A stretch of 32,000 nucleotides of DNA from a virus (IMGVR_UViG_3300045988_175865:1-32000), one strand, 5' to 3'. Shown: positions 5,538 to 26,514, numbered from the stretch's first letter. Notes: generated by a model from the letters alone, not told the origin. Numbers and translations are program-made.

Positions 5538-6465
5538 AAACTTATCATGTCGTATTAAAACTCTTTTAATTGCTGGAAACTCTGACCGCGTTATGGCGAA
5601 GACAATCAGCAGCCAAGCCATATAAAAATGGAAGGTTCAACGACTAATATTAATAACTTAATAATTCGACTTTAATAGTATGAAACAGTTAAAAACACAT
5701 TTAAATAAAATAGGAAGAAATTTAATAATTGCTATGTCTATAGGGGATGGGCATATAGCTAAAAAAGGATATTTAGATATAAATCATTGTGAAGCTCAGA
5801 AAGAGTATTGTTTATGAAAATGGCAACTTTTAAAAGATAATGGAGTTAAAGTTGGCACGTTTAGAGAATGAAAACAAATAAATGGATATTCTAAAGGTAA
5901 AGAAGTAACTAAATATGGATTTCAAACAACAGTACTTGATTTTTGTAAAGTACTTAGACGAGTTGAATATGAGTACGGAAAAACTAAATATAATAAAAAG
6001 TTACTTAAGCGACTTGGAGCTCAAGGGTTAGCAATATGAATAATGGATGATGGAGCATTACTTCGTAGATCTAAAACAAATAAAGATGGAATACGAACAT
6101 ATTCAGGATTTTATATTACAATATCTACGTATTGTCCATTAGAGCAAGCTAATGATATTATAGAATATTTTAATGAAGAATGAGATATTTATCCGACTAA
6201 GGTTTTTGATAAAAGGCAGCAATCCTATATAATTAATTTTTGTGCCAGAGAAGGTAGAAAATTAATAGAAATTATAAAACCTTATATGTGTCCCCACATG
6301 ATGTATAAGGTTCTTCCTGATAAAATAGAATGTGAAAACTACATGAAGTTATTAAAAGAAACAGCTGAAACTGCTGTTGAAGGTACACTAGAAATAGTGG
6401 AAATGGAGAGCGCGAAAGCGAAGATATAGTCTGATCTATATAGAAATATATAGTTAACACAATTG
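5538..6465 (+). mobile_element. Group I self-splicing intron 1 (928 nt) with an internal LAGLIDADG endonuclease ORF
   Basis: P1: exon UACGAU (5532-5537) pairs with intron GUCGUA (5549-5554), with U.G at the splice site. Core elements are AAUCAGCAGCC (about 5605-5615), GGUUCAACGACUA (5634-5646) and AAGAUAUAGUCUGA (6421-6434). A GAAA-capped hairpin CUAUAUA/UAUAUAG follows, and the intron ends AACACAAUUG with a terminal G at 6465. The host reading frame shifts across the insert, and splicing restores it. Confidence 0.85.
5680..6429 (+). CDS. LAGLIDADG homing endonuclease (double-motif), encoded in intron 1
   Basis: ATG at 5680, TAG at 6427. Motifs are LIIAMSIGDGHI and GLAI-W-IMDDGAL. There are four in-frame TGAs (5815, 5869, 6037, 6180), one at the conserved Trp of the second motif. 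The 3' end overlaps the intron P7 core. Confidence 0.88.
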
Positions 6466-7077
6466 ATAGATAAACAATATATCCTTGGCTATTCATTATC
6501 ATCTAATGGTCGTATTCATACTGATGAAAACTCAGCACCTTATTTACGAGCTGATGCATTAAGAAATAGAGTTGTAGATGGTGTATTTAGTATTATTCTT
6601 AATCCTAGAAACCAAATTAACTTAACAATGCCAGTAACTACTGATCGAATGCAAAGTCTTGCTAAAAGATCTAAAATGGGTGAAGCTGCTAAATATATGA
6701 GTCCTTACAATCCAGCAAGTAAGTACTTAATGCAGATTCAAAATATGGTTGGTAAAGCAGTTATTGGTAATGTTGCTACGGCATTAAAAAGTTTCTTTGC
6801 CTTAAGCAACGTATATAATACCAAGTTTAGAGAGATTAATGAAGCAATTCAAACTGGTAATTTTGATATAGCTAGAACGATGTTAAAAAGATATACATTT
6901 ATCCATAATGATAGACTAATAACATTAGCTAATGTTAATATGGAAGTATTTGAGAGTCTACCTGAAAATACTCCTGAAGATATTAGACAAACTCTAGCTC
7001 AAGTAATTAGTTATGAGGATGCCTTAGATGATCAATCTATGGTACTTGGAGAACTTTTAAATAGTGCTACTGATTTT
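6466..7077 (+). CDS. Giant RNAP-like protein, exon 2
   Basis: Starts IDKQY..., completing GSDYD|ID. This is the ORF-track 6463 frame, open to about 7077; beyond that the translation becomes a hydrophobic run (FFIRKLLNNLPILIFIIIFAL*) typical of intron read-through. The 3' boundary is uncertain by a few nt. Confidence 0.65.
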
Positions 7078-8372
7078 TTCATCAGAAAATTATTGAATAA
7101 CTTGCCTATATTAATTTTTATTATTATCTTTGCACTATAGATAAAAATAATTTAAAACAAATTAATATGGCAAAGAAATTAACAAATGAAGAAGTTGAAA
7201 AACTTCATAAAATGTATTTAGAAGGAATGACTTGTGAAGAAATTGGAAAACTTACAGGTCATAAAACAGAAACAGTATCTAAATATCTAAAAGAGAATTA
7301 TGATATAAAGCCTCAAAGAAAAATTGATTTAGTAATTTTATCAAAACTAGCAAAAGAGGGAAAAACAACTAAAGAAATGGCAGAATATTTTAATGTACAT
7401 CCTTCTGCTATATGCTATTGAAAAAAGTATTTTAATGAAGGAGATCTAAAGATTTCGCACCCTTTTTTGCAAGAAGATCATCAATTATCTCATCTACAAG
7501 AACAAATGATTCTTGGCAGTTTATTAGGAGATATGAACATAGGAAAACCTAGAAAACATCATCCTACTTGTAGATTATCCTTAGTACACTCAATTAAACA
7601 AAAAGAATTATTTATGAAGAAAGTAGAAATTCTTGGAGAATTTATGAGTAATTATAGAGAATATAGTTATTTAGATAATAGAACAAATAAAATATATTCT
7701 ACTATAAGAGGAAATAGTAAATCTCATAAAGTATTTAATGATATGTATAATAAACTATATATTAATGATATTAAAACAATTACTAAAGAATATTTAGATA
7801 TGATTAATCATCCAATAGCATTAGCTTACTGATTTATGGATGATGGAACGAATTCTGGACAAATAGCTACAAATTGTTTTTCTTTTGAAGAGGTTAAATT
7901 ACTATCGAATTGACTAGAAAACAAATTTGGTATTATTACAACAATGCACAAAAATTTAAGAAATTATACTTTATATATAGTTGCTAGCTCTAGATTTGAA
8001 TTTGATAATTTAATTTCTCCTTATATTATTCCTTCTATGAAATACAAATTAAAATTTTCTGAAATAGCAGAGTCAGTTAACTCCGTGAAAACGGGAAAGC
8101 CCTTAGAGATTTAAATACTAAACTATTATAGTAATATGATAGTGGCTAAGCTAATCACTTAGATATAGTAATAAGTTTAAATATTGGGTAATCCGTTACT
8201 AAGCTTCCTAATAGGAAGAAAGTTCAACGACTATCGAAATGCAGAAATGACAGAGTAGAGTAGAACTTAAGTAAGTTCGAAGTGCGGAGATCCTGTATAG
8301 GATAAGATATAGTCTGAACTCATAGGAAACTATGAGAGAACTTATGGAAACGATAAGTTCGTAACAAAATTG
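7078..8372 (+). mobile_element. Group I self-splicing intron 2 (about 1.3 kb) with a 5'-located HTH-LAGLIDADG ORF
   Basis: The structured 3' core (8115-8372) contains GGGUAAUCCGUUAC (about 8186-8199), AGUUCAACGACUA (8221-8233) and AAGAUAUAGUCUGAAC (8304-8319), then a GAAA-capped hairpin CUCAUAG/CUAUGAG. The end AACAAAAUUG (G at 8372) is nearly identical to the ends of introns 1 and 3. The 5' splice site is provisional (7074-7078): the U-run 7074-7079 can pair with GAAAAU at 7085-7090. Confidence 0.75.
7167..8114 (+). CDS. Homing endonuclease: two N-terminal HTH modules plus a LAGLIDADG domain, encoded in intron 2
   Basis: ORF-track 7167 and 7467 pieces are in the same frame and are joined by TGA at 7419. 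Further TGAs lie at 7830 (ALAY-W-FMDDGTN) and 7911. TAA at 8112. Motifs are LGSLLGDMNIG and WFMDDG. Confidence 0.85.
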
Positions 8373-10637
8373 AATGCAAAGGAATTAATCCTTAAAAAAA
8401 TTAATGCAGATACAAACTGGGTAGATATTTATACTATTTCTCTTATGTTAGGTGAATCACTAGATGAAATTGGTAATTTAATGATTGATGATGATATAAC
8501 AGAACTAGTAAATGATTTTACTACTAGTATGTTTAGTGATGAACAGAACTATGATAAAGTTCGTTATGTTGCTGATAAAGCATATACCTCTGAAGGAGAG
8601 AAAAAAGAGAAATATCTACAATTGCTGGATAAAGTTATATCTGCGGATGAAGTACGTATCTTAGGAAAGATACTTAAAATTAATCAAGGTCTTCCTACAA
8701 ACACTTCTGATTTATATAGTTATATTAAATCTATTGAAAAATATATAGAAAGTAGGTTTAATAGACAAATACTAGAAAAACAAGAAGAATATTTAAGAAT
8801 TGAAAAGGAGTTAGAAAAAACTTGATTAACTCCTGAAAAGAAGGAAATATTAAAAGAGGAACGAAGATTACAAAAAATATATCCAGAATTAGAAGAAGGG
8901 TCTTCATTATATAATTTCTATAATAAATACAATTTAATATATGAAGATATAAATGGTAATATTAGACATGGAGATTTAGAAGCCAAACTTGGTAAACCTA
9001 AAGAAGCTATAAAGGCTAGACAAGATTACTTTAAGTCTAGAAAAGAAATGGCTAATATCTGGCAATCTTTTGACTTAGTTAGATTTATTACCGATCCAAT
9101 CTACAAACAGGAAAGTATTGAAAAATATGAACAAAATAAGGTTAATTTTAATATTTTGGAAGTAATCAGTGCAGTTCCTCATTTTAGAGAAATGTTTAAT
9201 GTTCTTGCAATTAACAAAAGTGTTCTTAATAGTTTATCATCTAGAAATAGGTTAGAAGATATAATTCTAAACCAACTTAGTAGGAACTTTGCTGGAGTTC
9301 GTATGGATGTAAGCAAACCACTAAATAAACTTGAAATTAGAACTATAAAAGATCAGATAGATAAGTATCTTATTAGATCTTGGATTATTAGTAAAGGAAT
9401 TGAAATAAATGTTCCCGCTAGTCCTAAGAATCCAGCTCCTTATATATTAAGATTGGATAATGAAAATAATATTAACAAGTTTAGAAGTTATGTTGAAAAC
9501 TACGCTATTCCTTTATTAAAGGATAAGTTGAAAAATAATAAGTTTGTTCAGCTATTAACTTTTGGACTAAGACAAGGAGTTCCATTCTATAAGCTACCAC
9601 TTAACATGGTTCAAGTTGATAACACTCAGAAGACTAGGGCTTTATACGAAGAAGCATTATATGCTTTTAATAACCTTAATAAGGTCAAAATAACTGGTAT
9701 AGATATGAACTTAGTGGATATGTTTTATCTATATAACTTAGTTGTTAATCAAGATAAATTTGGTCCTAATTCTATGACTAGGATATTTGAAGACTTAGTA
9801 TCATCTGGTAATGAAGATCTTCTTATATATGATTTTAATAATTGAATTGATAGTCAAAATATTGAAGACTTAGTTAACAGATTTAGAACAGAAGAAAATA
9901 GTATTAGGTTTAATTTAGTAGAATCAACTCCTATTGTAGATGACACAAATTCTGATATTGGATTTAAAGAAACTCCTTTAGAAGAGGATATTGAAGAGGC
10001 TCAATATGAAGAATTAGCAGATAATCCTGTTAAAGAAAATAATGAAGTAGCTGAATATTATCAAACTAACCCTTCAACTAAATCAAAACTTATAACAATA
10101 ATTAAAGAATCTAATTTAAAAGGACTTCACATAGTTACAGATTCTGATTTAGTTAATGAAGATTCTACTACTAGAAATGCTAGGGGATTTGTGAAGAATG
10201 GTGAAATCTATATTAATGTAGATAGAGCCGAAGATGATACAGTAGTCCATGAATTTAGCCATTTATATTTAGCAGATGCTAAAGTAAATAGTCCTAATGA
10301 ATACTATTCAGTACTAAGTAGAGTTAGAAATACAGGTACTTGGAAATATATGAGAGAGATACCTGAATATCAAAATAAAAGAGGATCTGATTTTGATGAA
10401 GAGGTTCTAGCAACTTTAATTGAGCGAGCATATAATGAGGGATTAGGAGGAGCAGATTATGATGTTGCAATAGATGCTCTGAATCTTACATCTCCAGAAT
10501 TTAAATCATTTATAAAATCTGATATTCTACCATCATTAGGAGAGACATTAATAGAGAATTATAAGGTATCTCAAAAGATAGCTACACTTAAAAATAAGCT
10601 CATCAAAGATAATATTATTAAAGAGGATTGTAAATAA
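8373..10637 (+). CDS. Giant RNAP-like protein, exon 3, with a C-terminal zincin-like HExxH module
   Basis: ORF-track pieces 8370, 9048 and 10191 share one frame and are joined by TGAs at 8823 and 9843. HEFSH lies at 10248-10262 in the context GFVKNGEIYINVDRAEDDTVVHEFSHLYL. TAA at 10635-10637. Confidence 0.7.
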
Positions 10638-13600
10638 TGGAATGTACATATGAAACTACAATAAACGGTAAGAAGATAAAGTTCAGCTCCGAAATGGAGC
10701 TGGACAACTTCTTATCAAGTAAATTAGCAGATTATCAAATAAACGAATCAGATTTAACTTTTCAAATTAATCCTATAGATAGTACTATAGAGAAGGTAAA
10801 TGCTATTACAAGTAAAGTTAAAAATGCTTCTATAGAATCTGTAATTATAAATGATGATGGAGATTCAGAAACTATACTTAAGATTCCTGACTCAATAGGT
10901 ACTACTAGATTTATTACATCTAATGGGGATCCTTCTAATATGCAAAAGGAATTAGTTCCTCCTTTTAACTTAAATGATTTCTTAAAAAAAGAAAGAGAAA
11001 GATTAAGTGCAGAAGGAATGACTAAATCTCAAATTGATTCATATTTAGAAAAGTTACAAAAGTCTTGAACTCAGTTAACTGATTATGGTACTGAAATACA
11101 TTCCTTATTTGAAAGTATTATTAATAATACTACATTCAAACCAACTAATTTGAGTGAAGAACAGGTATTACGTTTAACTGAAGAATTTAAATCCTTTATT
11201 GAAGATATTAAATCTAAATATGGTAAAAATGCTAAAATCTTAACAGAAGTTCCTATAATATCAGATAAAATTCATGAAGCATATCAATCAGAAGGAATTA
11301 AAAGTATTAATGGTAGAATTGATATGCTAGTTATTGACCAGAGAGGATTTGCTCATATTTATGATTTTAAAGTTTCTAGAAAAGAAGTAGGAATATGAGA
11401 GGATACTAGAAACATACAAGGATCAACTACATGGCACTCTACTAAAAAACGTTCTGTGGGGTATCAGTTAGGAATATATAAGAATATTCTAGCACAATAT
11501 GGCATTACTGTAGGAGAAACAAACGTTGTTCCTATTAAAATAGATCCAGAATATAATGAAGATGGAACTATTAATAAGCTAAATGATGCTTATATTGATT
11601 TTACTAAAATAAAAGTAAATCCTAATGCTCCATATACAGAAACTATAAATACTATTCTTCCAGTAAAAACATTACTTGATGATATTGATCTTATAAACTC
11701 AATTCAGGAACCAATGACTAAATTTGTTCCTAATTATGCAGTAGAAACTCAGGTACAGAGAAATACAGTTACTGTGGATAAATACATTAATAATCCTAGA
11801 ATTGTACACTATATTGATGACACTGACCCAGAACGAAAGTTTGGAAAATACTGAATTTGGAATAAATATAAGAAGAATCGTAAAGTATATGCTAAAACAG
11901 AGGAGGAACTCAGAGAAAAAGTACAAGAATTAGTAAATGAAGAAAATAAACATATTCACTCTGAAATGTCTACCTTAGCGGATACCATTCAACAAATTAT
12001 TGAAGGATATGAATCCATTGATGACTTAGCTGCTGATAACCCATTTAAGTCTGATTATTGTAAAAAGATATTTAGAAAATATTTAGTAAAAAAGAGTGAA
12101 ACTGACTATGGATGAACTTTTCAAAATAATCCTAAATTTATAGCTGCAGGTATATTTGTATTTACTAAGGATGGTAAAATGGAAATAATATCTGTTACTC
12201 ATAATGATATTCATTCAGTTGTTAATTTAGGTCTTGGCAAATCTATTCAAGGAGCAACTAAAAAGGATAGTGATATTGATAGTCATGTAATAATGCAAGC
12301 ATCTAACGGTAATATTGACCTTGTTAAAGTTATGTGTTTATTAAATAATATGCCTGAGGTACTTAAAGGATACAAAGTTAATAAAATAGAATCACATAAT
12401 ATTTGAATTCAAAAAGGTACTGAGACCTATTTAGAAACTCTTTTAGATAATTTTTCTGAATTATGCAGGATACATGGTATTACCAATAATCTTACATCTC
12501 AAAATTTTGCAACAACATTAGAAGCAGCTGTAAATATAATAAGAGATACTGCTGGTGAAGAATTACTATCTCACATGGGTAATTGAGAATTTAATTTTAG
12601 TCCTAATGATATTGTAAATGGAGTTCCATTCATCTTGCAGAAAATGGAACAACTAAGAAAATTAAAATCTGCAGATGGCCTTCGTACTGCTTTAAGAGAA
12701 GGCAAATGAAATTTTGATGATCCTATTCAGCTAGCATATATGTTATTAGGCAGAGCACTAAATAAACTTAACGGATACTCTATTTATATTGAACAAGATC
12801 CTAAATTGTGAGTAAATTTTTCTAGGGAAGGATGATACACTGGTTCATATGTGAATAGTGCTAGTAACTCTTCTTCTAAAAATATTCAAACATTAAGTAA
12901 AATATTTTCAGTAGCAGAAGCTCATATTAGAAGGAAAGAATTATCATACAAACCTAGGATTAGTAAAGTAGTTAAGGCTTTATATGAATACAATCACAGA
13001 AATAGACTTATTGGAGGTGAGGTTAAGTTTTTTGATAACTTATTTGTTAAGGATACAAACGGTAATATAGATAAATCATTTAGACTAAAAAATCCTTCAG
13101 ATAGTAGTTTGGCTAAGGAAGAATCTGACTTTATTAAGATGTTTCTAGAGATAGTAAATGATTTTAGATTTGATGGTAATCAAAGTAAAATAGCTAAAGC
13201 CATTGAAGACGGTTCTTACTATGAAGTTCCTGTTTCTATGGGAAGTACATCTACTCAAATCCACAATAAAGGATATAAACAAGCCTTTACATCTAAATAT
13301 AATGAAGCTTTAAACTTTCTAAAACTTCTTCCTGAACAAGAGCAACAATTTAGGGAATCAAAAGGAGAGCCAAAGGTATATAATAAATATAGATTAAATG
13401 GACTTAGTAGATCTGATTTAATTGAAAATTATGGGATAGATGGTCTAGAAACTCAACTTGAAGATTTGCTATTAAATGTCATCCATACATACACAATGGA
13501 AGAAGTAATGAATGAATATCTTCCCAGACTTCAAGGTATTAAGATTGCCTTACAATATCAAACTGGGATGTTTGGAGTAGTTACTGATCATGTTTTAGAA

Positions 13601-15037: not shown

Positions 15038-15085
15038 AAAAAGAACCCCTTTGTCGTACGCATAGTACAACAAAGGGGTATTTTA
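15038..15085. terminator. Bidirectional rho-independent terminator between the convergent modules
   Basis: CCCCTTTGT (15045-15053) pairs with ACAAAGGGG (15069-15077), and the stem extends by GTAC/GTAC. It is flanked by an A-run (15035-15042, a U-run for the minus transcript) and by TATTTTA downstream on the + strand. Confidence 0.75.
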
Positions 15086-15104
15086 TAAATTTATAGTTAA
15101 TAGA

Positions 15105-15611
15105 TTACTTGGGAATTAACACCATGTTCATTCTTTTACCTTCCAACTTTGGTTTAGATTCAACTTTAGCAATATCTTCAAGATCCGTAGTCAAACGTAA
15201 CAAAAGAGATTCTCCCTGATCTTTAAACATAATTTCTCTACCTTTAAACATTATGTATGCTTTTACTTTAGCTTTTGAATTGATAAATTCTCTAGCATGT
15301 TTTAGTTTAAATTGATAATCATGTTCGTCTGTCTGTGGACCAAATCTTAGTTCTTTAACTATAACTTTCGCTTGACCTGCTTTTAAGACTTTTTCCCGTT
15401 TTTTCTGTTGGTATAGAAATTTCTGATAATCTTGAAAAATACATACTGATACTTGGTTTTTATTGTTATCAATATATACTGATAGTTCAATTAAATCAGT
15501 ATTAGTATCTACAGCCTTCCTTAAAGCATCAGAAAGAGAAATTAACTCCCCGCTATCTTTTATTCTGATAATCTGAGAGTTAATTTCATAATTTATAGAG
15601 TAATTTTTCAT
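15105..15611 (-). CDS. infC: Translation initiation factor IF-3 homologue
   Basis: 168 aa covering both IF-3 domains. VKELRFGPQTDEHDYQFKL, FKGREIMFKDQG and EGKRMNMVLIPK match E. coli IF3 VKEIKFRPGTDEGDYQVKL, FRGREMAHQQIG and EGRQMIMVLAPK. The N-domain (IRIKDSGE...DLIEL...CIFQDYQKFLYQQ) also matches. No TGA; ATG start. Confidence 0.9.
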   Translation of the reverse strand: MKNYSINYEINSQIIRIKDSGELISLSDALRKAVDTNTDLIELSVYIDNNKNQVSVCIFQDYQKFLYQQKKREKVLKAGQAKVIVKELRFGPQTDEHDYQFKLKHAREFINSKAKVKAYIMFKGREIMFKDQGESLLLRLTTDLEDIAKVESKPKLEGKRMNMVLIPK

Positions 15612-15779
15612 TTACTTCTTTACTTTCTTATCATTATTACATACTGTACAAGTACCTACTCCAGTTTTTTCATTTATATTAAAAACTCTTTTAAATTTAC
15701 CGTAAGTAGTATCTTGAAACTTGTGAACAATATTATTTTGTGCACAGCTGTTACAGTATTTTATTTCTGTATTTGCCAT
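15612..15779 (-). CDS. Small CxxC...CxxC zinc-ribbon protein (55 aa) with a basic tail
   Basis: Translation: MANTEIKYCNSCAQNN...GTCTVCNNDKKVKK. It is below the ORF-track length cut-off. Its stop abuts the infC ATG. Confidence 0.5.
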   Translation of the reverse strand: MANTEIKYCNSCAQNNIVHKFQDTTYGKFKRVFNINEKTGVGTCTVCNNDKKVKK

Positions 15780-15800
15780 TTTTATATATTTTAAAATTAA

Positions 15801-16496: not shown

Positions 16497-16499
16497 TAG

Positions 16500-17714: not shown

Positions 17715-17715
17715 T

Positions 17716-18798
17716 TTAAATAAGTTTTGCAGCTAATTTTGGGTTAAGTAATAGTTTATTACATTTACCAGGATAGTGTTTGTTTAGTGTTCTTACTAGG
17801 CTAAAGAGTAGATCTTCAGTTAACAATAACTTATCATTATCAACTATCCTAAGAATACGATCTATAATTAGGTCCATTTTACACCCAGGTTTACTAAGAT
17901 ATAATAAGCTATAATTTATAAATCTAGTGGTAATTACAGAAGCTATATCGGCACGATACTTACCTTTATCATATAATTGATTCTCAAGTATCCTTTTAAT
18001 ATCGTTCCAATCCGTATTAACTAGTTCTTCTGGGGAAGGAAGTTTATCTAATTTATTAGCTATGAATGTAGTAAATAATCCCCCAACAATATCATCACTA
18101 TCAAGAAAACATCCAGAAGCTATTTGCAGAATAAAGGATAAATTCTCAGGTTTAGACCAATCATCAATACTAGAAATAGTATTAATAAACATAGTATAAT
18201 TGCGAGCATTAATTTTAGACTGCCTAGATTTTGAACGGTCCATTAATTCATCACTATAAAGAAGCATAAAGTTAATCGCCTGATTATTATACCCTTTTTC
18301 CTCGGCATATTTAGCCCAATCATATTTATCAAACTTAATATTAAAGTTTAACATACGGGTTTTTATAGCCTCATCAATTTCTGTTACATTAAAATCTCCC
18401 CCTTCAGGATTAGCTGTTAAAATAACAGTACTATTAGGAGGTAATTTCCAAGAGAAATATTCTTGTCTTGATATAAGCTCCATAATAGCAGCCAATACAA
18501 TTGGAGAGCTACGATTCACATCGTCAAGATTCAAAATTGTAGGTTTACTTAGATCAATACTTTTTATCCATTCTGGAATTGCATAGCTCATTCTAGTTTC
18601 CTCAGATATTTCCCAACCTGCTTTACTATAACTTTCTATAAGTTCTGCAGTTATCCATCTACATTCATCATTTTTACATACATAGTGCTCTTTAATTGGC
18701 CACCCGCAAATTTCTCCTGGGTCTGAAATTTGACTAAGGTTTTTCTTGATGTAATTAGCACCAATTTCACTAGCTATTTGTTCGATTAAACTCGTTTT
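17716..18798 (-). CDS. MoxR/AAA_5-type AAA+ ATPase, exon 2
   Basis: Begins KTSLIEQIA (the second half of Walker A). Walker B-like ILNLDDVNR, sensor-1-like VILTANP, and DEAIKTRM. No TGA; all eight Trp codons are TGG. Confidence 0.8.
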   Translation of the reverse strand, partial: KTSLIEQIASEIGANYIKKNLSQISDPGEICGWPIKEHYVCKNDECRWITAELIESYSKAGWEISEETRMSYAIPEWIKSIDLSKPTILNLDDVNRSSPIVLAAIMELISRQEYFSWKLPPNSTVILTANPEGGDFNVTEIDEAIKTRMLNFNIKFDKYDWAKYAEEKGYNNQAINFMLLYSDELMDRSKSRQSKINARNYTMFINTISSIDDWSKPENLSFILQIASGCFLDSDDIVGGLFTTFIANKLDKLPSPEELVNTDWNDIKRILENQLYDKGKYRADIASVITTRFINYSLLYLSKPGCKMDLIIDRILRIVDNDKLLLTEDLLFSLVRTLNKHYPGKCNKLLLNPKLAAKLI

Positions 18799-20215
18799 CA
18801 ATTTTGTTATCTCTAGAGCTTTTTATCTCTAGATTCTATATCTTCATATTCGATATAGTTCAGCATATCTTTTCACCTCTAAAAATAGTAAGGTGGAGCA
18901 CACTCGTGGGAAAATTATATTCTGTACAACAGGTTCATTTCCTATGCGTTGCACTGTAGCAAATCATTTAAATCTGCTATTAGCTCAGGATTAGCATCTC
19001 AGCCTTCCCTGAATTTGCGCTCTAATAATTTTAAAGATTTCTCTTTAAAACGGCAATCTTTGATTTTATTAAATATTTGATATTTTCTATCTAAATAAAT
19101 TGTTGATTTATAATATAGGTGATATAAGTAGGCAGTTGCCTTTATTCCCGAAAAACTAAATGCAAAAGTAAAATCGCTATGATTATTAGAAAACAAATGT
19201 CTAGGCTCTAAGTAGCTTACCATTTTACTTAAAAATTCTTTTGCACCTAAACAGCTTATTTCTGGTTTATCATATAATCCTAATGACCCATCACCATCAA
19301 AATATCCTCTAATAAAATGTCTTATTAAATCTTTAGACTTAAAGATATTTTCATTAGGAAATTTTAAAGTCAGTGACTTTTTAGGAGTACATCCGTAAGA
19401 ATTTAATGTTTCTCATAAGTGTTTATTTGTTAGAGCAAATCTACATCTAAAATATTGCTTATTGTTACATATAATAGATGATATTTTTACTCTATTACCT
19501 GTTACTTGAAAAAACTTCTGTAATTTATATAAATGTTCCACATCAGATCCTTTTAAAGAAACTTCAAAATTATAATGAGGTTTTCCATTTTTAGGAATTG
19601 AAGCAATATATCCATCAGCAAAAATAAAACCCAATCAATAAGCTTTTTCTTCGGTATCTATAATATCAAAAATGTGTTCATTAAATTTTAGCATATTTTG
19701 AGTATTAATAACTGGTATTCCAAGTTTCTTTAATCTAATAGAAAAATTGCTTCGACTAAATTTATATTTATTACTTATTTGTGTTAGGCTATAACCATTA
19801 CTATACATCTGCACTGCCTCTTCAAAGTAAGTATCTAAATTACTCTTTCGTATATTAATGTTATTATTATGAAGAATAGTGGAAATAGTATTTCTGGATA
19901 CATTATATAGTTTAGCTATATCACTACAAGTTTTACCCAAATTATATAGTTTACAAATATTAATTTTTTCAGATAATATTAATTTACTACACTCTCTACA
20001 AAGAGAATTTCTATTAGCTACACGACTAACTGTAGTAGGATGTACTTTACAAATTTTACTTATATCTTTAATCTTATAACCTTGATTATATAAATCAATA
20101 ATCTTATTTTCTAAATCATTACTAATTTTTTGCATAATATTTAAATTTTAAATAAATTAAATCTATGCAAAAGTAATAATATAAAACAATTTAATCAAAT
20201 ATTTTATAATAAATT
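18799..20215 (-). mobile_element. Group I self-splicing intron 3 (about 1.4 kb) with an HTH-LAGLIDADG ORF, splitting the ATPase Walker A motif
   Basis: On the minus strand: AAUCCUGAGC (18983-18992), CAACGCAUAG (18942-18951), AAGAUAUAGAAUC (18832-18844), hairpin UCUAGAG/CUCUAGA (18812-18833), and the end AACAAAAUUG with terminal G at 18799. Exon 1 ends ...PGIG (GGU). Exact splice sites are good to a few nt; the P1 pairing is weak. Confidence 0.75.
18942..20135 (-). CDS. Homing endonuclease: three N-terminal HTH repeats plus a double LAGLIDADG domain, encoded in intron 3
   Basis: ORF-track pieces 19635..20135, 19413..19634 and 18999..19223 are in one frame and are joined by TGAs at 19635, 19413 and 18999. 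Motifs are AY-W-LGFIFADGYI and FIRGYFDGDGSL. TAG at 18942. Confidence 0.85.
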
Positions 20216-20338
20216 ACCTATACCAGGAAGTGAAGTAAGTTGAACACTTATTGGAAATTCTCCTCTTTCTTGGAGAGATCTATTATTGTTTATAATATAT
20301 TTTAAAATAGGTTTTATTTCTCCTAATGTTAGTTCCAT
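20216..20338 (-). CDS. MoxR/AAA_5-type AAA+ ATPase, exon 1 (41 codons)
   Basis: MELTLGEIKPILKYIINNNRSLQERGEFPISVQLTSLPGIG. Joined to KTSLIEQIA it gives the Walker A sequence PGIGKT. Confidence 0.75.
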
Positions 20339-20343
20339 ATTTA

Positions 20344-21495
20344 TTACGGTATTAATACAGTTATTCCTGGAAACTTCTGAGATTTATTCCCATCAGATGT
20401 AATAATCCAGATTAAGTTTTTACAAGTTGAAAATGTAAATTTAGATAAGTAACCATCAGTAAATATCACACAAGAACTAAATTCTTTGTGTTCTTTATAG
20501 AAGTCTAGAGCTGGGCAAACATCAGTACCTCCACGACCAATAAATTCAAATTTACTTTTTTTATCATATTTACATATCTTAGTGATATTAGTATCACACT
20601 CTATAATTGTTATATCTACACCTGTTTTATATATATGATTAACTTCAGATATAAAATTAGAAAAGTCATTCATATTTATAGAACCTGAAGTATCAATAAC
20701 AACACATATGTTTGGTTTTCTTTTTAAACGAGTTCCTCTAGCATCAGGTAATCTTTTTGAAGGTCTCATCCTAGTTAATTGTAGATCACTACTAATAGAA
20801 TCTCCAACTACTCGTCTAAAATAGTTTCTCCAGTTAAAAACTGGAGGATTATTTCTTATTTTTTCAAGTATTTCTTTTAATTCTCCAGGTATGTGGCCTA
20901 CTTGTTTATTAACAAGAGCTTCTGTTTCTTTTAACTTAGACTTTACTTGATTTTCATATAATTTACGTTCGGCTTCCGATATATCTTTAGGCCACATATC
21001 ATGATTATCTATACTTTTAAAGTCGGCTAATCCTTCAGTACCAGGGATACATTTTTCAGGGTGTTCTTTAACAAACTTTTGTATTTCATTATAATAATAC
21101 CACGCCCCTCTATTGGGCTCTAGGTTCTTTCCAATTAACTTAGAAAGATTCTGTAAAGTAACACACCCATCAGGCAATCCTGTAACTATTTGGTTCACAA
21201 CTACATCTGTTGCTATATTCATATTATCATGATTATCTGCTTTGAAATCATCAGTAAGATGAAATAAACATATGTGTACTAACTCATGGGTGAGCACAGC
21301 AATACATTCAGTATCAGTAAGGTTATTCCAAAATGTTTCATTTACATATAATGTAAAATTGATACCATTAGGACCTACAGCAGCTGTTTTTACAGGATGA
21401 TTATCACTAACAATCTCCTTGCGTAGATTTAGCAAGAAAAGTCCATAAAAAGGTTGCTGAATAAGAAGCTCTTTACATGCTTTAATTAATTGCAT
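20344..21495 (-). CDS. vWA-domain protein with an N-terminal putative metallopeptidase domain (DUF2201-like); partner of the AAA+ ATPase
   Basis: HExxH in LTHELVHICLFH. MIDAS DxSxS in VVIDTSGSINMND. It lies immediately upstream of the ATPase on the same strand. No TGA. Confidence 0.75.
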   Translation of the reverse strand: MQLIKACKELLIQQPFYGLFLLNLRKEIVSDNHPVKTAAVGPNGINFTLYVNETFWNNLTDTECIAVLTHELVHICLFHLTDDFKADNHDNMNIATDVVVNQIVTGLPDGCVTLQNLSKLIGKNLEPNRGAWYYYNEIQKFVKEHPEKCIPGTEGLADFKSIDNHDMWPKDISEAERKLYENQVKSKLKETEALVNKQVGHIPGELKEILEKIRNNPPVFNWRNYFRRVVGDSISSDLQLTRMRPSKRLPDARGTRLKRKPNICVVIDTSGSINMNDFSNFISEVNHIYKTGVDITIIECDTNITKICKYDKKSKFEFIGRGGTDVCPALDFYKEHKEFSSCVIFTDGYLSKFTFSTCKNLIWIITSDGNKSQKFPGITVLIP

Positions 21496-21667
21496 ATTCT
21501 ATTTCATCTTTATTAAGCCAACGTTTAAATGTTAATCTAACAACGCCTTTTATAGGTGCATCTAACATTTTATAGTCAGCATTACATTCATAAAAAATCC
21601 TAGGATTGTTGGTATCATAAGTCCAACAAATCCCAGGATATTCGTTAGTTAAACAATATTTTCTCAT
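21482..21667 (-). CDS. Hypothetical small protein
   Basis: ORF-track ORF. It overlaps both neighbours in operon style (TAATG at 21665-21669). Confidence 0.45.
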   Translation of the reverse strand: MRKYCLTNEYPGICWTYDTNNPRIFYECNADYKMLDAPIKGVVRLTFKRWLNKDEIEYAIN

Positions 21668-22251
21668 TAGTGTTGTTTACAATATATTACGCCTTGATAA
21701 CGGCTATTAAAGCAAAGATTACATTTTCTGCAATCTCCTTTACATCTTACAGCATTATTTGGTAAATTATTAAATTGAAACTTATCTACACAGAAAAACC
21801 AACGGTGTGCTTTAATATTTGGAGAAGAAGAATTTACTATAAAGTGAACTCCGCTAAAATTTAAGTCCTCTCTACAGGTATAACAATATGTTTTAATTCC
21901 AAAAACTTTATATAACCATCGTCCAATATTAGATCACCTGTCAACAGACTGTTGATCTGGAAAATCACCCGCTTCATTAAGTCTAACGTATTTAATCTTA
22001 ACAGGAGCATTTAATATATAATACATTAGCATGTCCTTAAGATCTTTATCATCCCACAAATACATGTATGACTCAATCAATGTGTTTTTGTGCAAGTATG
22101 CTTTATATATACGTTCACATTTTTTAGCATAACATACTTTACTACATCTACAGAAGCCTAATCTTTCCGAAGGACAATGTACTGCAGATGTAATATTTAC
22201 TATGAGTGTTTCTTTTGGTAATTTGGCATTCCCATATGAAAATACTTGCAT
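21667..22251 (-). CDS. Cys-rich protein, possibly GP88-family-like
   Basis: ORF-track 21934..22251 continues through one TGA to TAA at 21667 (194 aa). The N-terminal pattern SYGNAKLP...CPSERLGFCRCSKVCYAKK recalls the xSLPAxxTCP...C..CYA signature; the assignment is from memory only. Confidence 0.45.
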
Positions 22252-22279
22252 ATTACCTAAGCCTCATCGCTCTTGAAAT

Positions 22280-22735
22280 TTAATAATATTCGTATTCATC
22301 ATAGTTTTCATTATAATAGTCTTCATCTCCAGTATCATCTCCTATAGGATTATTAAACCCATATTTAACGGAAGTTGCTTTGAAAAGAGGTAATCCATAG
22401 TAGGCATAATTATCATTAGACCAATTTTCCAAACCTTCTTCAAGGATCCAGTTCCACATCTGCACCACCTCAAACATTAGACTCGAAGAAATGCCTCTTT
22501 TATCTAAGGCTTTCTCAAAACCAAAAGCAACATCTTCTTTAAGCTGCTTCAGTACATTCTCTCTGGTAAAAGGAATAGTCTTTTTATCCCATTCTTCCTT
22601 AGTTACGTTATCTTGAAGAGTTAGACCACAAAAAGGAAACATTTCAAAGGGAATGAATTCTGCAAGTCTATATAAATCTCTTCTATCTATCGTAGGACTT
22701 TTATATGCTACTTTAATCTGTTCAAGTGTTTTCAT
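22280..22735 (-). CDS. Hypothetical protein with an acidic, Tyr-rich C-terminal tail
   Basis: 151-aa ORF that ends GDDTGDEDYYNENYDEYEYY. Confidence 0.55.
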   Translation of the reverse strand: MKTLEQIKVAYKSPTIDRRDLYRLAEFIPFEMFPFCGLTLQDNVTKEEWDKKTIPFTRENVLKQLKEDVAFGFEKALDKRGISSSLMFEVVQMWNWILEEGLENWSNDNYAYYGLPLFKATSVKYGFNNPIGDDTGDEDYYNENYDEYEYY

Positions 22736-22804
22736 CTTCTATATGTTATATTTTAGCTGTCATCTTTAGATAATTTGATGTTAGTACTTGATAATATATC
22801 TTCT

Positions 22805-23044
22805 TTATCTTTTGTTAAGTTTAAATTTACCACAACGTAAAGAACCACTAAGCCCTAAATCTAAACTACCATAAACATAAGATTTATAGAAACTTCCATA
22901 TGGGTTAGCCTCAAGACTCCAATCCTCTAAAGCTCCAATCTGATACATAATACTATCTATATTATCAATAGGAATCATCGGTAAATCTAATTCTCTATTA
23001 CTAGAATTGAGAAATTCTTCTATTAGTTGTTTAATCGTTTCCAT
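22805..23044 (-). CDS. Hypothetical small protein
   Basis: ORF-track ORF that overlaps the thyX stop by 14 nt. Confidence 0.45.
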   Translation of the reverse strand: METIKQLIEEFLNSSNRELDLPMIPIDNIDSIMYQIGALEDWSLEANPYGSFYKSYVYGSLDLGLSGSLRCGKFKLNKR

Positions 23045-23945
23045 CTAATAAGTTTCTTTTAATAAACTCTTCTTTTAAAGGAATAGCTAGTTCCTGAGCC
23101 TGAGGATGAGCTGCTTTATCAGTTCTAAGTTTAAAGAATCCTCTCCACTGTTCAATAGTACCAGTCATAATTAATTCTGTTTTTGTGCACAATGGAAGAA
23201 TTTCTCTAGCCTCTTGAGCTTTACAACCTCTGTTAATAAGAGCTTTATAATTCACTTCAGCTGATTCACACTGAGATAAGAAAATGTCAACAGAGTCTCC
23301 TTCAAAATGTTTTAGTATGGTATTGGGAATATTATTTTTATCTGCAGCATCTACCCAATCGTTATCCCAATATTGATATCTAGCCTCCTTTAAATCAGTC
23401 CAATAAGGAATAATAAACGTAAGTTCGTTATTAAATTTATCGGAATTGTAATTGCAATATCTTGTTGATTGTTCCGCAAATGATAACACGCGATGGCGAC
23501 AAAACTCACGACTTATAGAAATTGGAAGAATAAACTTTACTGTAATTCGTTTTTCATGATATTCAGTAGGTTCACAGAGATGTTTTAAATCGTCAAGCCA
23601 GCCATTTTCATATAAAACTCTGTAATTAGTTGTGATATGATAATTACCATAAGAATCTGTATTAATAACTGAGTAAGAATTAGAAAGGTATTGTTTAATT
23701 ACCCAATTATCACCTATTATATTGGAAGCATGATCCTTATGAATATAAAGATATACAGTGCCATGTTCAAGCATTGCGGTATGCTGTCTATCCTTAATCA
23801 TATTAACAAACTTCTCTGCAGAATCTTCTGTAATACGATCCTCTGACTTATAACATGTTCTTCCTGCTCTTTCAATTTGTTTATATATTCCTTGAATACC
23901 TGGCTCTTGTTCTAAAATTTCAAAACTACTTTTAATAAGTTTCAT
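23031..23945 (-). CDS. thyX: FAD-dependent thymidylate synthase ThyX
   Basis: ThyX signature RHRVLSFAEQSTRY (RHRxxSxxxxSxR), plus the N-terminal AGRTCYKS and HTAMLEHG blocks. 304 aa, no TGA. Confidence 0.9.
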   Translation of the reverse strand: MKLIKSSFEILEQEPGIQGIYKQIERAGRTCYKSEDRITEDSAEKFVNMIKDRQHTAMLEHGTVYLYIHKDHASNIIGDNWVIKQYLSNSYSVINTDSYGNYHITTNYRVLYENGWLDDLKHLCEPTEYHEKRITVKFILPISISREFCRHRVLSFAEQSTRYCNYNSDKFNNELTFIIPYWTDLKEARYQYWDNDWVDAADKNNIPNTILKHFEGDSVDIFLSQCESAEVNYKALINRGCKAQEAREILPLCTKTELIMTGTIEQWRGFFKLRTDKAAHPQAQELAIPLKEEFIKRNLLDGND

Positions 23946-23953
23946 ATAATTAT

Positions 23954-24250
23954 TTATTCTTTTTGTTTATAAGTTATAGTTGGAATTGCAATAAATTCTG
24001 AAACAAAACAGGGTTTATCAATATCTTTCCAACTATTCTCCTCACTATATAATTTAGAAGGCCCAGTTATACCAATATATCCGTTCTCACACTCATATAC
24101 ATCTGTTGAGATTTCATACCATCTATGTTCATCTATATACAGATTACTAGCAACCTTTTTAATTCTATTATTGATAAATTCTTCAGCACTATATAATGAA
24201 TATAGAGGATAATTATCCCTTATTAAGTTTACTGCTTCATTAACTTTCAT
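23954..24250 (-). CDS. Hypothetical protein, tandem paralogue A
   Basis: 98 aa. Shares MKV.E...I, Y.CE.G...ITG and E(F/Y)I.IPT..Y..K with the adjacent ORF. Confidence 0.55.
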   Translation of the reverse strand: MKVNEAVNLIRDNYPLYSLYSAEEFINNRIKKVASNLYIDEHRWYEISTDVYECENGYIGITGPSKLYSEENSWKDIDKPCFVSEFIAIPTITYKQKE

Positions 24251-24549
24251 TATCGACGATATTTTGGAGCATACATTACAGTAGGAATTTCAATATATTC
24301 TTCTGCAAATGCTGCTATATTAAATTCCTCATAATCTTTCTTTTTTATATTATTCTTAAGACCTGTAATTGCAACAAACCCGTCTTCACATTGATAAATA
24401 TTTGTTACTATATTAAAATATTTATGCTTTGTAATATTATAGTTCTCAACTACAATATCATCCTTATATAAACCTACAGCTCTAGTTGCTTCAATTAAGG
24501 AATAATAATCAGTATTACTAATTATGGATATAACTTCTTTTACTTTCAT
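24250..24549 (-). CDS. Hypothetical protein, tandem paralogue B
   Basis: 99 aa. Collinear similarity to 23954..24250, with a TAATG junction between them. Confidence 0.55.
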   Translation of the reverse strand: MKVKEVISIISNTDYYSLIEATRAVGLYKDDIVVENYNITKHKYFNIVTNIYQCEDGFVAITGLKNNIKKKDYEEFNIAAFAEEYIEIPTVMYAPKYRR

Positions 24550-24560
24550 TTTATTATATA

Positions 24561-24746
24561 TTATATTTTAATAATTTTATCACAACTTTTCAAGTGAACT
24601 TTTCCACTAAGATCATATTTTAATTTGATTCTTTCTGCAGTAAATCCTATAACTTCTGCTTTTACAAACCAAGATGAAGTTCGTGATCGCTCAATACAAA
24701 TAACTTGATCTCCAATTGCTAATATGTTACCTAACCAATCTTTCAT
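24561..24746 (-). CDS. Hypothetical small protein
   Basis: 61-aa ORF joined to the upstream ORF by a TAATG junction. Confidence 0.45.
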   Translation of the reverse strand: MKDWLGNILAIGDQVICIERSRTSSWFVKAEVIGFTAERIKLKYDLSGKVHLKSCDKIIKI

Positions 24747-25204
24747 TATGTATTCATTTTATAAAACATTTGTATCTTTTCTTTCAAATCATATAGTATT
24801 GCTTTTTCCTGAACAGTATTTACAAATAGTTCGTACATATTATACTTTTCATCATTATATATTAACAACATATCATTAATACTTACATCAATATAATTAC
24901 CTCCTATATAATATCGTAATTTAAAATTAATATATGAATTATTACATTCATACTTAATATCTGTATAACATTCTGAAGCAATATTTAATAAATTATTAAT
25001 AAAGTTCTTTGTATAAGATACAACCATTCTATTTGTAATTGGAATCCTACTCTTTGTTCGGTCTTCAATATTTCTAATAACATCATTTACAACACTATCC
25101 CTTGCTATTATTGTAGCTTGATCTGATTCAATTTTACAAGTTCGAGATTGAAGATTAGAAACAAACAGTTGAATTTCTTTTAAAGTTAAATTTTCATCAT
25201 TCAT
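24746..25204 (-). CDS. Hypothetical protein
   Basis: 152-aa ORF joined to the DNA polymerase stop by a TAATG junction. Confidence 0.5.
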   Translation of the reverse strand: MNDENLTLKEIQLFVSNLQSRTCKIESDQATIIARDSVVNDVIRNIEDRTKSRIPITNRMVVSYTKNFINNLLNIASECYTDIKYECNNSYINFKLRYYIGGNYIDVSINDMLLIYNDEKYNMYELFVNTVQEKAILYDLKEKIQMFYKMNT

Positions 25205-26129
25205 TAAAATAATTTTAATTGTTTATGCTTAAACATACATACGATTTTTTGTGCTGCAGCTATATAAAAAGAATAATTAATATTAGATGGTAATTCATCA
25301 GATTTATTAATAGTATTCAAAATTGTTACGCCAGAGTCAGTTAATAGTTTAATATAGTTATATCGTCTACCATTAGAATCTATTTTACATTTATATAGCC
25401 ATGGACCATCAGTAGATATATAATATCGGTTAATACGTTGAATTAACTGACCATCATATTCTACAGAATAATCTTTACTAACTTTTTGATAAGTTATAAA
25501 CTTATTAATATCCTTACAAGCATAAATAGTATCTGCAACAGGAATTCCATCTGCTAAACATTTATTAATAGCTTCGGGAATAATAACTGCATCCATACCT
25601 TTGCCAAGTTTTACCTTGTCGATAAACATACCTTTTGTCTTTAAAAGACTTGGATCTTTTGTTTCAGAATAACCTTCCTTAATTGCAAGATAGTCATTAA
25701 TAGCAAACTGATACATTGCTTCAAATCTATCCTCTTCAAGAGTAAGTTTAGTTAAGATTTCCCAATTCTTGCAAATTTCTTGTACATTGGTATATTTGTT
25801 TCGTTTTAATAGTACAAATAATCCATCAGTATTAGCTTGAATTATTCTACAACCTGCTTGAACTAATTTCTCCGCTAACATTAATAACATCAATTGTCCA
25901 TTAATTCTAATTTGCATAACAGCATATGGAGAATAACAAAAATTATGTTCATTTTGTAGATTACCAGACAAACCGTTTAAAGCAAGTTTTAGAGTTTCAT
26001 TCTTAACTTTATTTCCATTATGTTTAGCTTCTAATCGTTCATCTCGAATTTGAGAGTAAACTTCAAGGAATTCTTTACCAAGATGTTTTGGATAAAATCC
26101 ATATTGTATAATAATGCTAGGATATAGTG
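25204..26129 (-). CDS. Family B DNA polymerase, exon 2 (palm/thumb)
   Basis: Starts (S)LYPSIIIQYGFYP. It contains the motif B-like KLALNGLSGNL and the motif C-like IQANTDGLFV. TAA at 25204. Confidence 0.85.
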
Positions 26130-26514
26130 CATATCCATTTTAATTTTCGACTATATCTTAATTTTTATATCTAATTTGTTCTGAATTTAATTCAATGTAG
26201 TGTCATTTAAAGCCTTTATATGAAGCTTTTGTACCTTGACAACAACAATAAATGGATATAACCAAATTAAATTTATAAAAATTCGCGGCGTTTCGAATAA
26301 AACCTTATAAAGTTTTATCCTACTCTCTTTCGAGATAGTCTGTGAACCTTGATCCTATAAGGATCCTTGGCTGCGGATTATAATACTTATTAAGTTTTTA
26401 CTTTCTCATAAGCGTTATCTTATGTGCTACACTATGTATTACTACTAGCTGCAGTATTAATAAGTTAAATTAAGTTCCCGCAATTAACCGCGTTTTACTT
26501 GCGCCACTATATTA
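26130..26514 (-). mobile_element. ORF-less group I self-splicing intron 4 (385 nt) in DNA polymerase motif A
   Basis: On the minus strand: P1 is exon UUGCGU with intron GCGCAA (U.G at the splice site). P10 is intron AUAGUG with 3' exon CACUAU. Core elements are AAUCCGCAGCC (26369-26379), GGUUCACAGACUA (about 26335-26349) and AAGAUAUAGUCG (about 26148-26160), with terminal G at 26130. Removal gives exactly 650 codons. Confidence 0.9.

Follow-up and report, generated by a model that had tools for sequence, protein, structure and literature searches.

The stretch of viral DNA analyzed here, called the window throughout, is the 32,000-nucleotide (nt) sequence IMGVR_UViG_3300045988_175865:1-32000, in which four insertions interrupt three genes: a giant gene resembling those of RNA polymerases (RNAP), which is interrupted twice, an AAA+ ATPase gene, and a DNA polymerase (PolB) gene. 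We consider it very probable that the window comes from a large crAss-like phage which reads TGA as tryptophan, and that the insertions are four genuine group I introns of type IA (I1 to I4) belonging to separate lineages. Three of them carry an open reading frame (ORF) for a predicted homing endonuclease (HEG1 to HEG3), two of which also have helix-turn-helix (HTH) repeats. The genes and introns are given here in order along the window, with a slash marking the place of an intron within a motif.

3..5537, + strand: exon 1 of the RNAP-like giant gene; runs off the window start and ends ...WMEGSDYD, where intron-less homologues continue ...GSDxD/IDKQY
5538..6465, + strand: intron 1 (I1), group I, 928 nt, phase 0, in the RNAP catalytic motif DYD/ID
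5680..6429, + strand: HEG1, 249 amino acids (aa), LAGLIDADG_2 (PF03161, 68.5 bits), no HTH, phrog_11023, four in-frame TGA codons
6466..7074, + strand: RNAP exon 2, 203 aa
7075..8372, + strand: intron 2 (I2), group I, 1298 nt, phase 0, in the invariant RNAP stretch ...LLNSATD/NAKELILKKINAD
7167..8114, + strand: HEG2, 315 aa, two HTH (HTH_38, HTH_23) and LAGLIDADG_2 (PF03161, 120.9 bits), three in-frame TGA codons
8373..10637, + strand: RNAP exon 3, 754 aa and the stop codon
17716..18798, - strand: AAA+ ATPase exon 2, beginning KTSLIEQ, with no TGA and eight TGG codons
18799..20215, - strand: intron 3 (I3), group I, 1417 nt, phase 0, in Walker A, GIG/KT
18942..20135, - strand: HEG3, 397 aa, three HTH and LAGLIDADG_1/3 (PF14528, 29.6 bits), phrog_4645
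20216..20336, - strand: AAA+ ATPase exon 1, 41 aa, ending ...SLPGIG
25204..26129, - strand: PolB exon 2
26130..26514, - strand: intron 4 (I4), group I, 385 nt, no ORF, phase 1, in PolB motif A
26515..27538, - strand: PolB exon 1, ending ...MLIDIDVA and the first base of a Ser codon

The boundaries of the four introns could be placed by reading the sequence directly, as each intron is preceded by an exonic U and has a terminal G where the reading frame resumes. The predicted ligated junctions are GAUUACGAU/AUAGAUAAA for I1, ACUGAU/AAUGCA for I2, AUAGGU/AAAACG for I3, and GUUGCGU/CACUAUAU for I4. Joining exon 1 (...GAU UAC GAU) to exon 2 (AUA GAU AAA...) across I1 gives D-Y-D/I-D, removal of I2 and I3 gives ...LLNSATD/NAKELILKK and ...SLPGIG/KTSLIEQ, and the phase 1 junction of I4 (GUU GCG U/CA CUA UAU CCU) gives DIDVA-S-LYPS. 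Intron-less homologues are continuous across all four junctions. Seven RNAP homologues align without gaps over both RNAP sites, with G-S-D-x-D-I-D-K of the first motif and A-T-D, K, I, and K of the second invariant; the intron-less PolB of the Suoliviridae phage cr125_1, to which the window PolB is 67% identical, has EMLIDIDVASLYPS, and the spliced window product DIDVASLYPS is identical there; and an intron-less ATPase homologue in the related contig L054 (54% identity) has DAGIGKSS. PHROG and Pfam models likewise span the spliced ATPase and PolB junctions, with the spliced ATPase matching AAA_5 (25.5 bits) and phrog_1297 and the spliced PolB matching phrog_1252 over residues 4-644 (491.8 bits) with the family B polymerase motifs A (DVASLYPS) and C (ANTDG) present; the spliced PolB retrieved no match from Pfam. 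An initial annotation of the window had placed group I introns at the RNAP DxDxD loop, a second RNAP site, the ATPase Walker A motif, and PolB motif A, and all four placements agree with the junctions backed by intron-less homologues, the two outermost positions it gave, 5538 and 26514, being the first bases of I1 (+) and I4 (-).

The motif restored by the removal of I1, DYDID, is invariant in homologues and agrees with the signature known for crAss RNAPs, D-x-D-[I/V]-D, in which position 4 is I or V. The virion RNA polymerase of the crAss-like phage phi14:2, gp66, has the motif as DFDID and requires all three Asp residues for activity (Drobysheva et al., bioRxiv 10.1101/2020.03.07.982082). 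The window gene resembles gp66 in predicting a giant single-chain protein with this catalytic motif. They differ in that gp66 is free of introns and in that no solved structure could be matched to the window RNAP by sequence. Counted from the last Asp, site 2 is 201 residues further on, and in gp66 the bridge helix and trigger loop are 164-271 residues beyond the motif, so it is the spacing only that makes it plausible to regard site 2 as a second catalytic RNAP site near these two elements.

Searches of sub-windows with the group I intron model RF00028 matched each intron at E values of 1e-6 to 1e-9, with scores of 33.3 and 26.4 bits for I1 (two pieces flanking the ORF), 41.7 for the I2 core, 39.5 for I3, and 37.8 for I4, and with the match covering the full model in I3 and I4. 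As these scores are below 50 bits, independent support was sought in homologous introns, for which an IMG/VR search with RNAP exon 2 provided 46 related loci. In the site-2 family, pairs were counted over seven sequences for P1, P3, P4, P5, P5a-c, P6, P7, P7.2, P8, P9, and P9.1; 96% of cells are paired and 38 of 82 pairs are compensatory, a result reached by none of 500 shuffles and with slid controls at 32-41%. The family of I3 (I3 with its relatives in cr6_1, phiCD211, and PJN02) gave 97% of cells paired and 31 of 65 pairs compensatory. On direct reading, compensatory changes among three relatives keep the pairing of P1, P3, P5, P6, P8, and P9 in I1, and comparison of I4 with its relative in L150 (MT839577.1) revealed compensatory changes in P1, P3, P6, and P7.1/7.2.

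Model alignments place a conserved core, P3-P9 with the P3/P7 pseudoknot, J4/5, J6/7, and J8/7, in all four introns, and a loose J6/7-P7 pattern has exactly four matches in the window, one per intron and each on the correct strand. A fifth intron is not apparent, no other gap in the window gene map being long enough. Extra helices of the IA type lie between P7 and P3': I2 has P7.2 (four compensatory pairs), I3 has P7.1 and P7.1a, and I4 has two hairpins which differ in L150 but are both kept there. In I1, P7.1 is followed by the ORF, and the assignment is less certain. All four introns are of IA type (IA2-like). The initial annotation was thus right to call these insertions group I introns, as the RF00028 matches, the junctions, and the covariation including P1 all bear out, and since all four are of one type, the cores do not belong to unrelated subgroups, the outcome that it had named as speaking against its reading.

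Each intron has an internal guide which pairs with the end of its upstream exon as P1.

5549..5554, + strand: I1 internal guide GUCGUA, pairing with exon UACGAU, with U.G at the splice site
8072..8077, + strand: I2 internal guide GUCAGU, about 1 kb 3' of the 5' splice site, pairing with exon ACUGAU
19050..19054, - strand: I3 internal guide GCCGU, directly 5' of P2 (19049-19030), pairing with exon AU(A)GGU
26499..26512, - strand: I4 guide region; GCGCAA (26504-26499) pairs with exon 1 UUGCGU, with P1 as in the Rfam alignment

The guides change together with their exons. At site 1, guide and exon are GUUCAAG and CUUGGAU in L137 and GUUGUAG and CUACGAU in L037. At site 2, where the guide hexamer GUC-N-GU lies directly 5' of P3, the guide base tracks the third base of the Thr codon in relatives (ACU with A, ACA with U, ACC with G, and ACG with C). 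The position of the I3 guide is conserved in four phages, with one compensatory pair in phiCD211. P10 pairings could also be drawn: 5542-5548 of I1 can pair with the start of exon 2, and in I4, AUAUAGUG (26512-26505), 5' of the guide, is the exact complement of the first eight nt of exon 2, giving a clean P10. Other candidates were considered and dropped. For I2, a hairpin at the 5' end (CUGAU-UUUUUC-AUCAG) would as P1 give U-A at the splice site, and covariation favours the distal guide; for I3, a guide at intron position 1083 (GCCUAC) or within the 5' 40 nt gave way to the conserved GCCGU next to P2. We would also like to note that in the site-2 introns of L002 and L011, the exon base before the 5' splice site is C rather than U (Asp GAC), so the pair is C-G and not U.G.

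In the mechanism that we propose, the pre-mRNA would fold so that the internal guide and the final 5-7 bases of the exon form P1, with a U.G pair where the RNA is cut, and a guanosine-initiated transesterification would remove the intron and restore the motif. The LAGLIDADG endonucleases of three introns would cut intron-less alleles at co-infection, and repair would copy the intron into the cut allele, i.e., homing. Each intron lies in a codon stretch that is unable to vary, among them the Mg-binding motif DYD/ID of the RNAP and its invariant helix ATD/NAK.

As the I2 guide lies inside HEG2 and about 1 kb from the 5' splice site, HEG2 occupies the P1 loop, and in ORF-less 337-nt relatives at site 2, a 35-nt hairpin stands in its place. 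HEG3 is in the P1 loop of I3. Placed in this way, the two endonuclease genes would put each guide about 1 kb from its 5' splice site. HEG1 lies between P7.1 and P3', and the claim of the initial annotation that the first endonuclease sits in a different loop holds. The last 15 or so codons of HEG2 overlap the guide, P3, P4, and P5, with the stop codon (8112-8114) in P5a; HEG3 reads through P2-P6 and stops at 18942-18944 (-) in the 5' strand of P7; and HEG1 stops with UAG at 6427-6429 in J8/7-P7'. Because all three ORFs end in core ribozyme elements, translation and folding of one RNA should exclude each other; translating ribosomes would unfold the ribozyme core at the three ORF ends.

Each endonuclease has two LAGLIDADG motifs (SIGDG and IMDDG in HEG1, LLGD and FMDDG in HEG2, IFADG and YFDGDG in HEG3) and a Pfam score that exceeds the cut-off, and the three are predicted to be single-chain LAGLIDADG homing endonucleases. 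HEG1 and HEG2, both of family PF03161, share 23% identity over 211 aa. Between HEG2 and HEG3, similarity is confined to the HTH part (26% over 83 aa), and their nuclease domains fall in different Pfam families, so the architecture that the initial annotation saw in common, HTH repeats followed by LAGLIDADG, stands as to the two and three HTH but not as a shared nuclease. Its observation that HEG1 lacks HTH repeats agrees with Pfam, which finds LAGLIDADG_2 only. The layout of HTH with LAGLIDADG_2 is also less unusual in this phage group than was supposed, given that there are 363 homologues and that nearly all of the best matches listed (50-60% identity) carry HTH. HEG3 is 42% identical to the intron endonuclease of cr6_1, 36% to that of PJN02, and 26% to that of phi116.

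Sequences resembling the Bacteroidetes promoter consensus lie upstream of two of these genes: TTTG-N20-TACTTTTG at 20168-20199 (-), 32 nt before the HEG3 start, and CTTG-N20-TATCTTTG at 7101-7132 (+), 34 nt before the HEG2 start. The Bacteroidetes -7 box TAnnTTTG is not enriched in the window (50 observed and 54 expected), and the single full match to TTTG-N20-TAnnTTTG in the window, the one before HEG3, is about the chance expectation, so the idea of endonuclease genes with promoters of their own was dropped. The 5' leaders of the site-2 and I3 introns are 74% alike over 92 nt.

The initial annotation was silent on the genetic code, and here its reading needs correction. Under the standard code, the long genes of the window are fragmented in-frame, and reading TGA as a sense codon joins the pieces, yielding + strand ORFs of 1,852 codons and then 229, 775, and 1,468. 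TGA sits at the Trp positions of known motifs, such as AIWIMDDG and AYWFMDDG in the endonucleases and VVTWMEGSD in the RNAP (example codons are at 5514-5516, 6037-6039, and 7830-7832), and the ORFs of HEG1, HEG2, and HEG3 are intact only when TGA is Trp. With this code and the removal of four introns, about a dozen fragments become an RNAP of more than 2,800 aa, an ATPase of 401 aa, and a PolB of 649 aa. The usage of TGA is uneven. The ATPase, the DUF2201/VWA gene which it adjoins, and ThyX have no TGA and five to eight TGG each, whereas the RNAP genes have 8 and 14 TGA, with eight in-frame in the RNAP exon 1 ORF (code 4). TGA and TGG counts are four and one in HEG1, three and none in HEG2, and three and none in HEG3; HEG3 carries TGA and its host ATPase gene does not, which means that HEG3 needs suppression and its host gene does not. 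PolB exon 1 has six TGA and one TGG, and exon 2 has no TGA and two TGG; the two halves (26515-27538 and 25204-26129, both -) may have separate histories with the intron as their boundary. No tRNA genes were found in the window.

The window has a G+C content of 25-33%, and crAss-like phages are the only GenBank phages that it matches at the nucleotide level, the DNA polymerase being about 75% identical. Many human-gut assemblies contain near-identical relatives, as contigs of 164-171 kb. From this size, the recoding, the intron load, and a PolB 67% identical to that of a Suoliviridae phage, we infer a large (about 165-170 kb) crAss-like phage and place it putatively in the Zeta group; the window contains no phylogenetic marker gene (TerL, MCP, portal). 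Exact-sequence look-ups of the proteins P0003 and P0004 and of the exon-1 fragment returned no match.

Related loci were surveyed for the occupancy of the same sites. Among 46 contigs, 26 have no insertion at site 1, eight carry an ORF-less intron of 309 nt there, and nine carry an endonuclease-bearing intron of 926-942 nt; the remaining three (L019, L020, and L026) have a 935-nt intron 6 nt upstream of site 1 (D/YDID), with guide sequences altered to match. The 309-nt intron at DxDxD matches RF00028 over the full model (L021) and is kin to the shifted intron (88% over 147 nt), not to I1. Site 2 is empty in 20 of 43 contigs, holds an ORF-less intron of 337 or 357 nt in 14, and holds an endonuclease-bearing intron of 1296-1310 nt in seven. 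The other two contigs (L008 and L009) have an insert of about 310 nt with a site-2-like core some 15-18 nt upstream of site 2, for which no boundaries were found that keep both the frame and the invariant residues. The PolB site is intron-less in the best 80 of 317 relatives, and the I4 relative in L150, of 952 nt with a GIY-YIG gene in P8, lies 5 nt upstream with a re-targeted guide. The copy of I3 in L049 and L052 is 1356 nt long compared with 1417 nt in the window; in L049, which is 94% identical, the endonuclease gene has lost 61 nt from its HTH region, and since this deletion would shift the frame, the endonuclease appears to be decaying there. The empty sites in relatives for which the initial annotation had proposed a survey are therefore found, with both RNAP sites polymorphic among the empty, ORF-less, and endonuclease-bearing states. 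This pattern of occupancy is as would be expected from a cycle of homing, endonuclease decay, and intron loss.

The initial annotation had also proposed that the four introns form one family that spread within the genome, on the basis of short shared elements. The decamer AACAMAATTG is indeed shared by three introns: it has three matches in the window with 0.32 expected, all of them ending exactly at the 3' splice sites of I1-I3 (tail UAACAMAAUUG), and as none of 100 shuffles reached this count, chance in AT-rich sequence, which had been put forward as the explanation that would undo the proposal, does not account for it. The element AGATATAGW occurs in all four introns, but its six matches with 2.6 expected are not significant alone, and the copy in I3 (18843-18835), the annotated AGAUAUAGA element, is the 3' strand of P9; the homologous J8/7-P7 element is AAGAUAUGCUG at 18871-18861. 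The third element, AATCMNNAGC, is present in I1, I3, and I4, while I2 has AAUCCGUUAC instead. The tail AACAAAAUUG is found beyond the window as well, in introns of Clostridioides, Bacillus, and Mammaliicoccus phages, and foreign introns resembling I3 all end in GAUAACAAA(A)UUG or a close variant. Its presence in foreign introns marks the tail as a lineage-wide constraint rather than as a sign of recent duplication or chance.

Two explanations other than four spliced introns of separate lineages bear on what the insertions are and where they came from. That the gaps are not spliced at the RNA level, and represent broken genes, separate polypeptides, frameshifting, or "unknown expression mechanisms," could be argued from the frameshifts and stops inside DxDxD and the unknown mechanisms proposed for them by Yutin et al. 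2021 (PMC7886860). The Rfam results lend themselves to the same argument, and they belong with several points that weigh against our own interpretation: none of the four introns reaches the RF00028 gathering score (50 bits), whole-window Rfam scans (at the gathering score and at E<=10) found no intron, and P10 is weak in I2 and I3. The low scores probably stem from the large ORF and peripheral insertions together with a G+C content of 27%. The RNAP is a further such point, since its putative identity draws on the motif, on how large the gene is, and on published work; profile searching of the PDB with the RNAP segment found no match, tblastn of the segment against GenBank phages gave one weak match only, and the AlphaFold model of the RNAP homologue P0002 (pLDDT 55, with the DxDxD region below 50) was too poor for a fold search. 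We nevertheless regard an unspliced origin as highly improbable, as the boundaries restore invariant motifs to the nucleotide, covariation backs both P1 and the group I fold, close relatives have these sites without an insertion, and the ORF-less insert at DxDxD also matches the full RF00028 model. The duplication of one intron family to four sites within this genome draws on the IA type and the P, Q, R, and S core elements common to all four introns, on the tail of I1-I3, on HEG1 and HEG2 both being PF03161, and on short blocks common to the families (I4 shares 46 nt at 93% with the L002 intron at site 2, and the L021 intron at site 1 shares 33-35 nt at 85-91% with introns at site 2). We find this unlikely. 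BLASTN among the four window introns found no match at E<=1e-3, whereas each aligns over its full length at 66-98% identity with same-site introns of other phages; the peripheral helices differ, P2 being peculiar to I3 and a P5abc-like arm to I2 and I4, with the P9 hairpin missing from I4; HEG1 and HEG2 are distant in sequence, and the HEG3 nuclease is of another family. Foreign introns inside the group are partly seen already for I3, whose core is 68-76% identical over about 240 nt to introns found in a crAss phage of the Delta group (76%), in C. difficile phages (about 71%), and in Lak phages and a Bacillus phage and also matches Mammaliicoccus phage introns, and short near-identical core matches occur in 102 Staphylococcus phage records as well. 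The short blocks suggest occasional module exchange between families. The four introns thus appear to be separate lineages, orthologous to same-site introns elsewhere rather than intragenomic copies, and the family history given by the initial annotation needs revision, although a distant common ancestry of all IA introns, which may exist, counts on the other side.

The remaining alternative concerns I1, and it is compatible with four genuine introns of separate lineages. Two related lineages, A (L041-L047) and B (L013 and L137-L146, the abundant one), meet within this intron.

5630..5687, + strand: A/B switch stretch inside I1, 58 nt identical in both lineages

Up to 5629, 216 of 217 informative sites are A-type, the last 210 in an unbroken run, and from 5688 onward, 305 of 306 are B-type, so that the window is about 97% identical to L041-like contigs upstream of the switch and about 99% identical to L137/L013-like contigs downstream. 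I1 in the window is therefore an A/B hybrid, formed either by recombination through the shared intron core or as an assembly chimera, and to this extent it also tells against our interpretation. That assembly joined two co-occurring lineages, making the hybrid I1 unnatural, is a real possibility which we nonetheless think somewhat doubtful: the switch is clean, the combination is absent from the 46 IMG/VR relatives and 10 independent ENA/Logan assemblies, and the exact junction was not found in IMG/VR or JGI contigs, but recombination of co-infecting phages inside a shared intron core is expected biology, and since the two parents do not differ in P3 or P7, every long-range pairing is retained in the hybrid. 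This question is restricted to the junction, the introns as such being present in many independent assemblies.

The relatives of I3 are of interest for the sites at which they are found. In the window, I3 splits the AAA_5 ATPase at GIG/KT, and its relatives split an ATPase at GTG/KT in cr6_1 (L147), a RecD-like helicase at GMG/KS in the Bacillus phage PJN02 (L149), and a terminase at GLG/KS in the Mammaliicoccus phage phi116 (L152). In phages of Bacteroidota and of Bacillota, the lineage is thus found at the Walker-A G/K junction, in four P-loop genes that are not orthologous. The ATPases of the window and cr6_1 have no detectable similarity (E=0.96), and the endonucleases of these four introns are homologous. 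Other members of the lineage lie elsewhere, in a tail gene of phiCD211 and, in cr131_1, close to the 3' end of the terminase gene. In phiCD211 (L148, 2001-2548), a second group I intron, annotated and of a different type, lies within about 20 nt downstream of the I3-type intron in the tail gene region. The introns of phiCD211, PJN02, phi116, and Lak phages resemble I3 in the core, in the architecture of P2 and P9.1, and in the 3' tail, and PJN02 and phi116 also share the HEG3-homologous endonuclease and the Walker-A site; the host genes of phiCD211, PJN02, and phi116 differ from that of I3. The annotated endonuclease ORFs of cr6_1, PJN02, and phi116 differ from HEG3 in being open under the standard code and in seemingly lacking its three N-terminal HTH repeats, which for PJN02 and phi116 was judged from BLASTP alignments that start after the HEG3 repeats. 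A literature search, which was not exhaustive, found no description of the Walker-A intron pattern. We suggest tentatively, as readings whose chances are nearly even, that the I3 lineage, intron and LAGLIDADG gene together, is specialised on the GGU/AAR Walker-A junction and has used this near-universal sequence to move between non-orthologous P-loop genes, and that ORF-less introns together with TGA recoding may explain the DxDxD breaks of Zeta-group RNAPs.

The td, nrdB, and sunY introns of phage T4 are group IA2 introns with P7.1/P7.2 that lie in conserved parts of nucleotide-metabolism genes and encode I-TevI, I-TevII, and I-TevIII. Their endonuclease ORFs are free-standing, are looped out of the ribozyme, and spread by homing at co-infection; the endonucleases are GIY-YIG or HNH and lie in other loops than those of the window. 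The window introns differ in having LAGLIDADG and HTH modules, two of them in the P1 loop and overlapping the core, and in having RNAP, AAA+ ATPase, and PolB genes as hosts.

Closer counterparts are known from crAss-like phages of the Zeta and Delta groups, which have genomes of 145-192 kb, recode TGA or TAG, and carry up to 14 group I introns and three inteins (PMC7886860). In these phages, PolB is split by introns with TGA-containing ORFs, LAGLIDADG genes lie in the transcription block, DxDxD is disrupted, and the Delta group has introns in PolB and ATP_43b (PMC7886860). High intron density, TGA recoding, and DxDxD disruption were therefore already published for the Zeta group in 2021, and the window, which shares all three and in which I3 is directly related to the ATPase intron of cr6_1, represents a clear example and not a new kind. 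Yutin et al. 2021 (Nat Commun) found introns via endonuclease protein domains, reported neither RNA structures nor exact junctions, and saw in unknown mechanisms a partial cause of the DxDxD disruptions (PMC7886860); the window adds junctions, folds, guides, and ORF-less forms. Searches for endonuclease domains miss ORF-less introns, and the 309-nt and 337-357-nt introns at the RNAP sites offer a simple explanation for the disruptions ascribed to unknown mechanisms. This explanation and the Walker-A-targeting lineage are the two leads from this work, which leaves the understanding of how group I introns function unchanged. The relatives form a natural series of empty, invaded, and endonuclease-less sites, along with introns shifted by 5-6 nt with re-targeted guides, that would lend itself to work on the homing cycle in the most abundant gut phages, and the predicted endonucleases, which would recognise sequences of universal catalytic motifs, might be worth considering as reagents. 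The window also encodes, at 15105-15611 (-) and immediately following the block of RNAP genes, a translation initiation factor IF3 with IF3_N and IF3_C domains.

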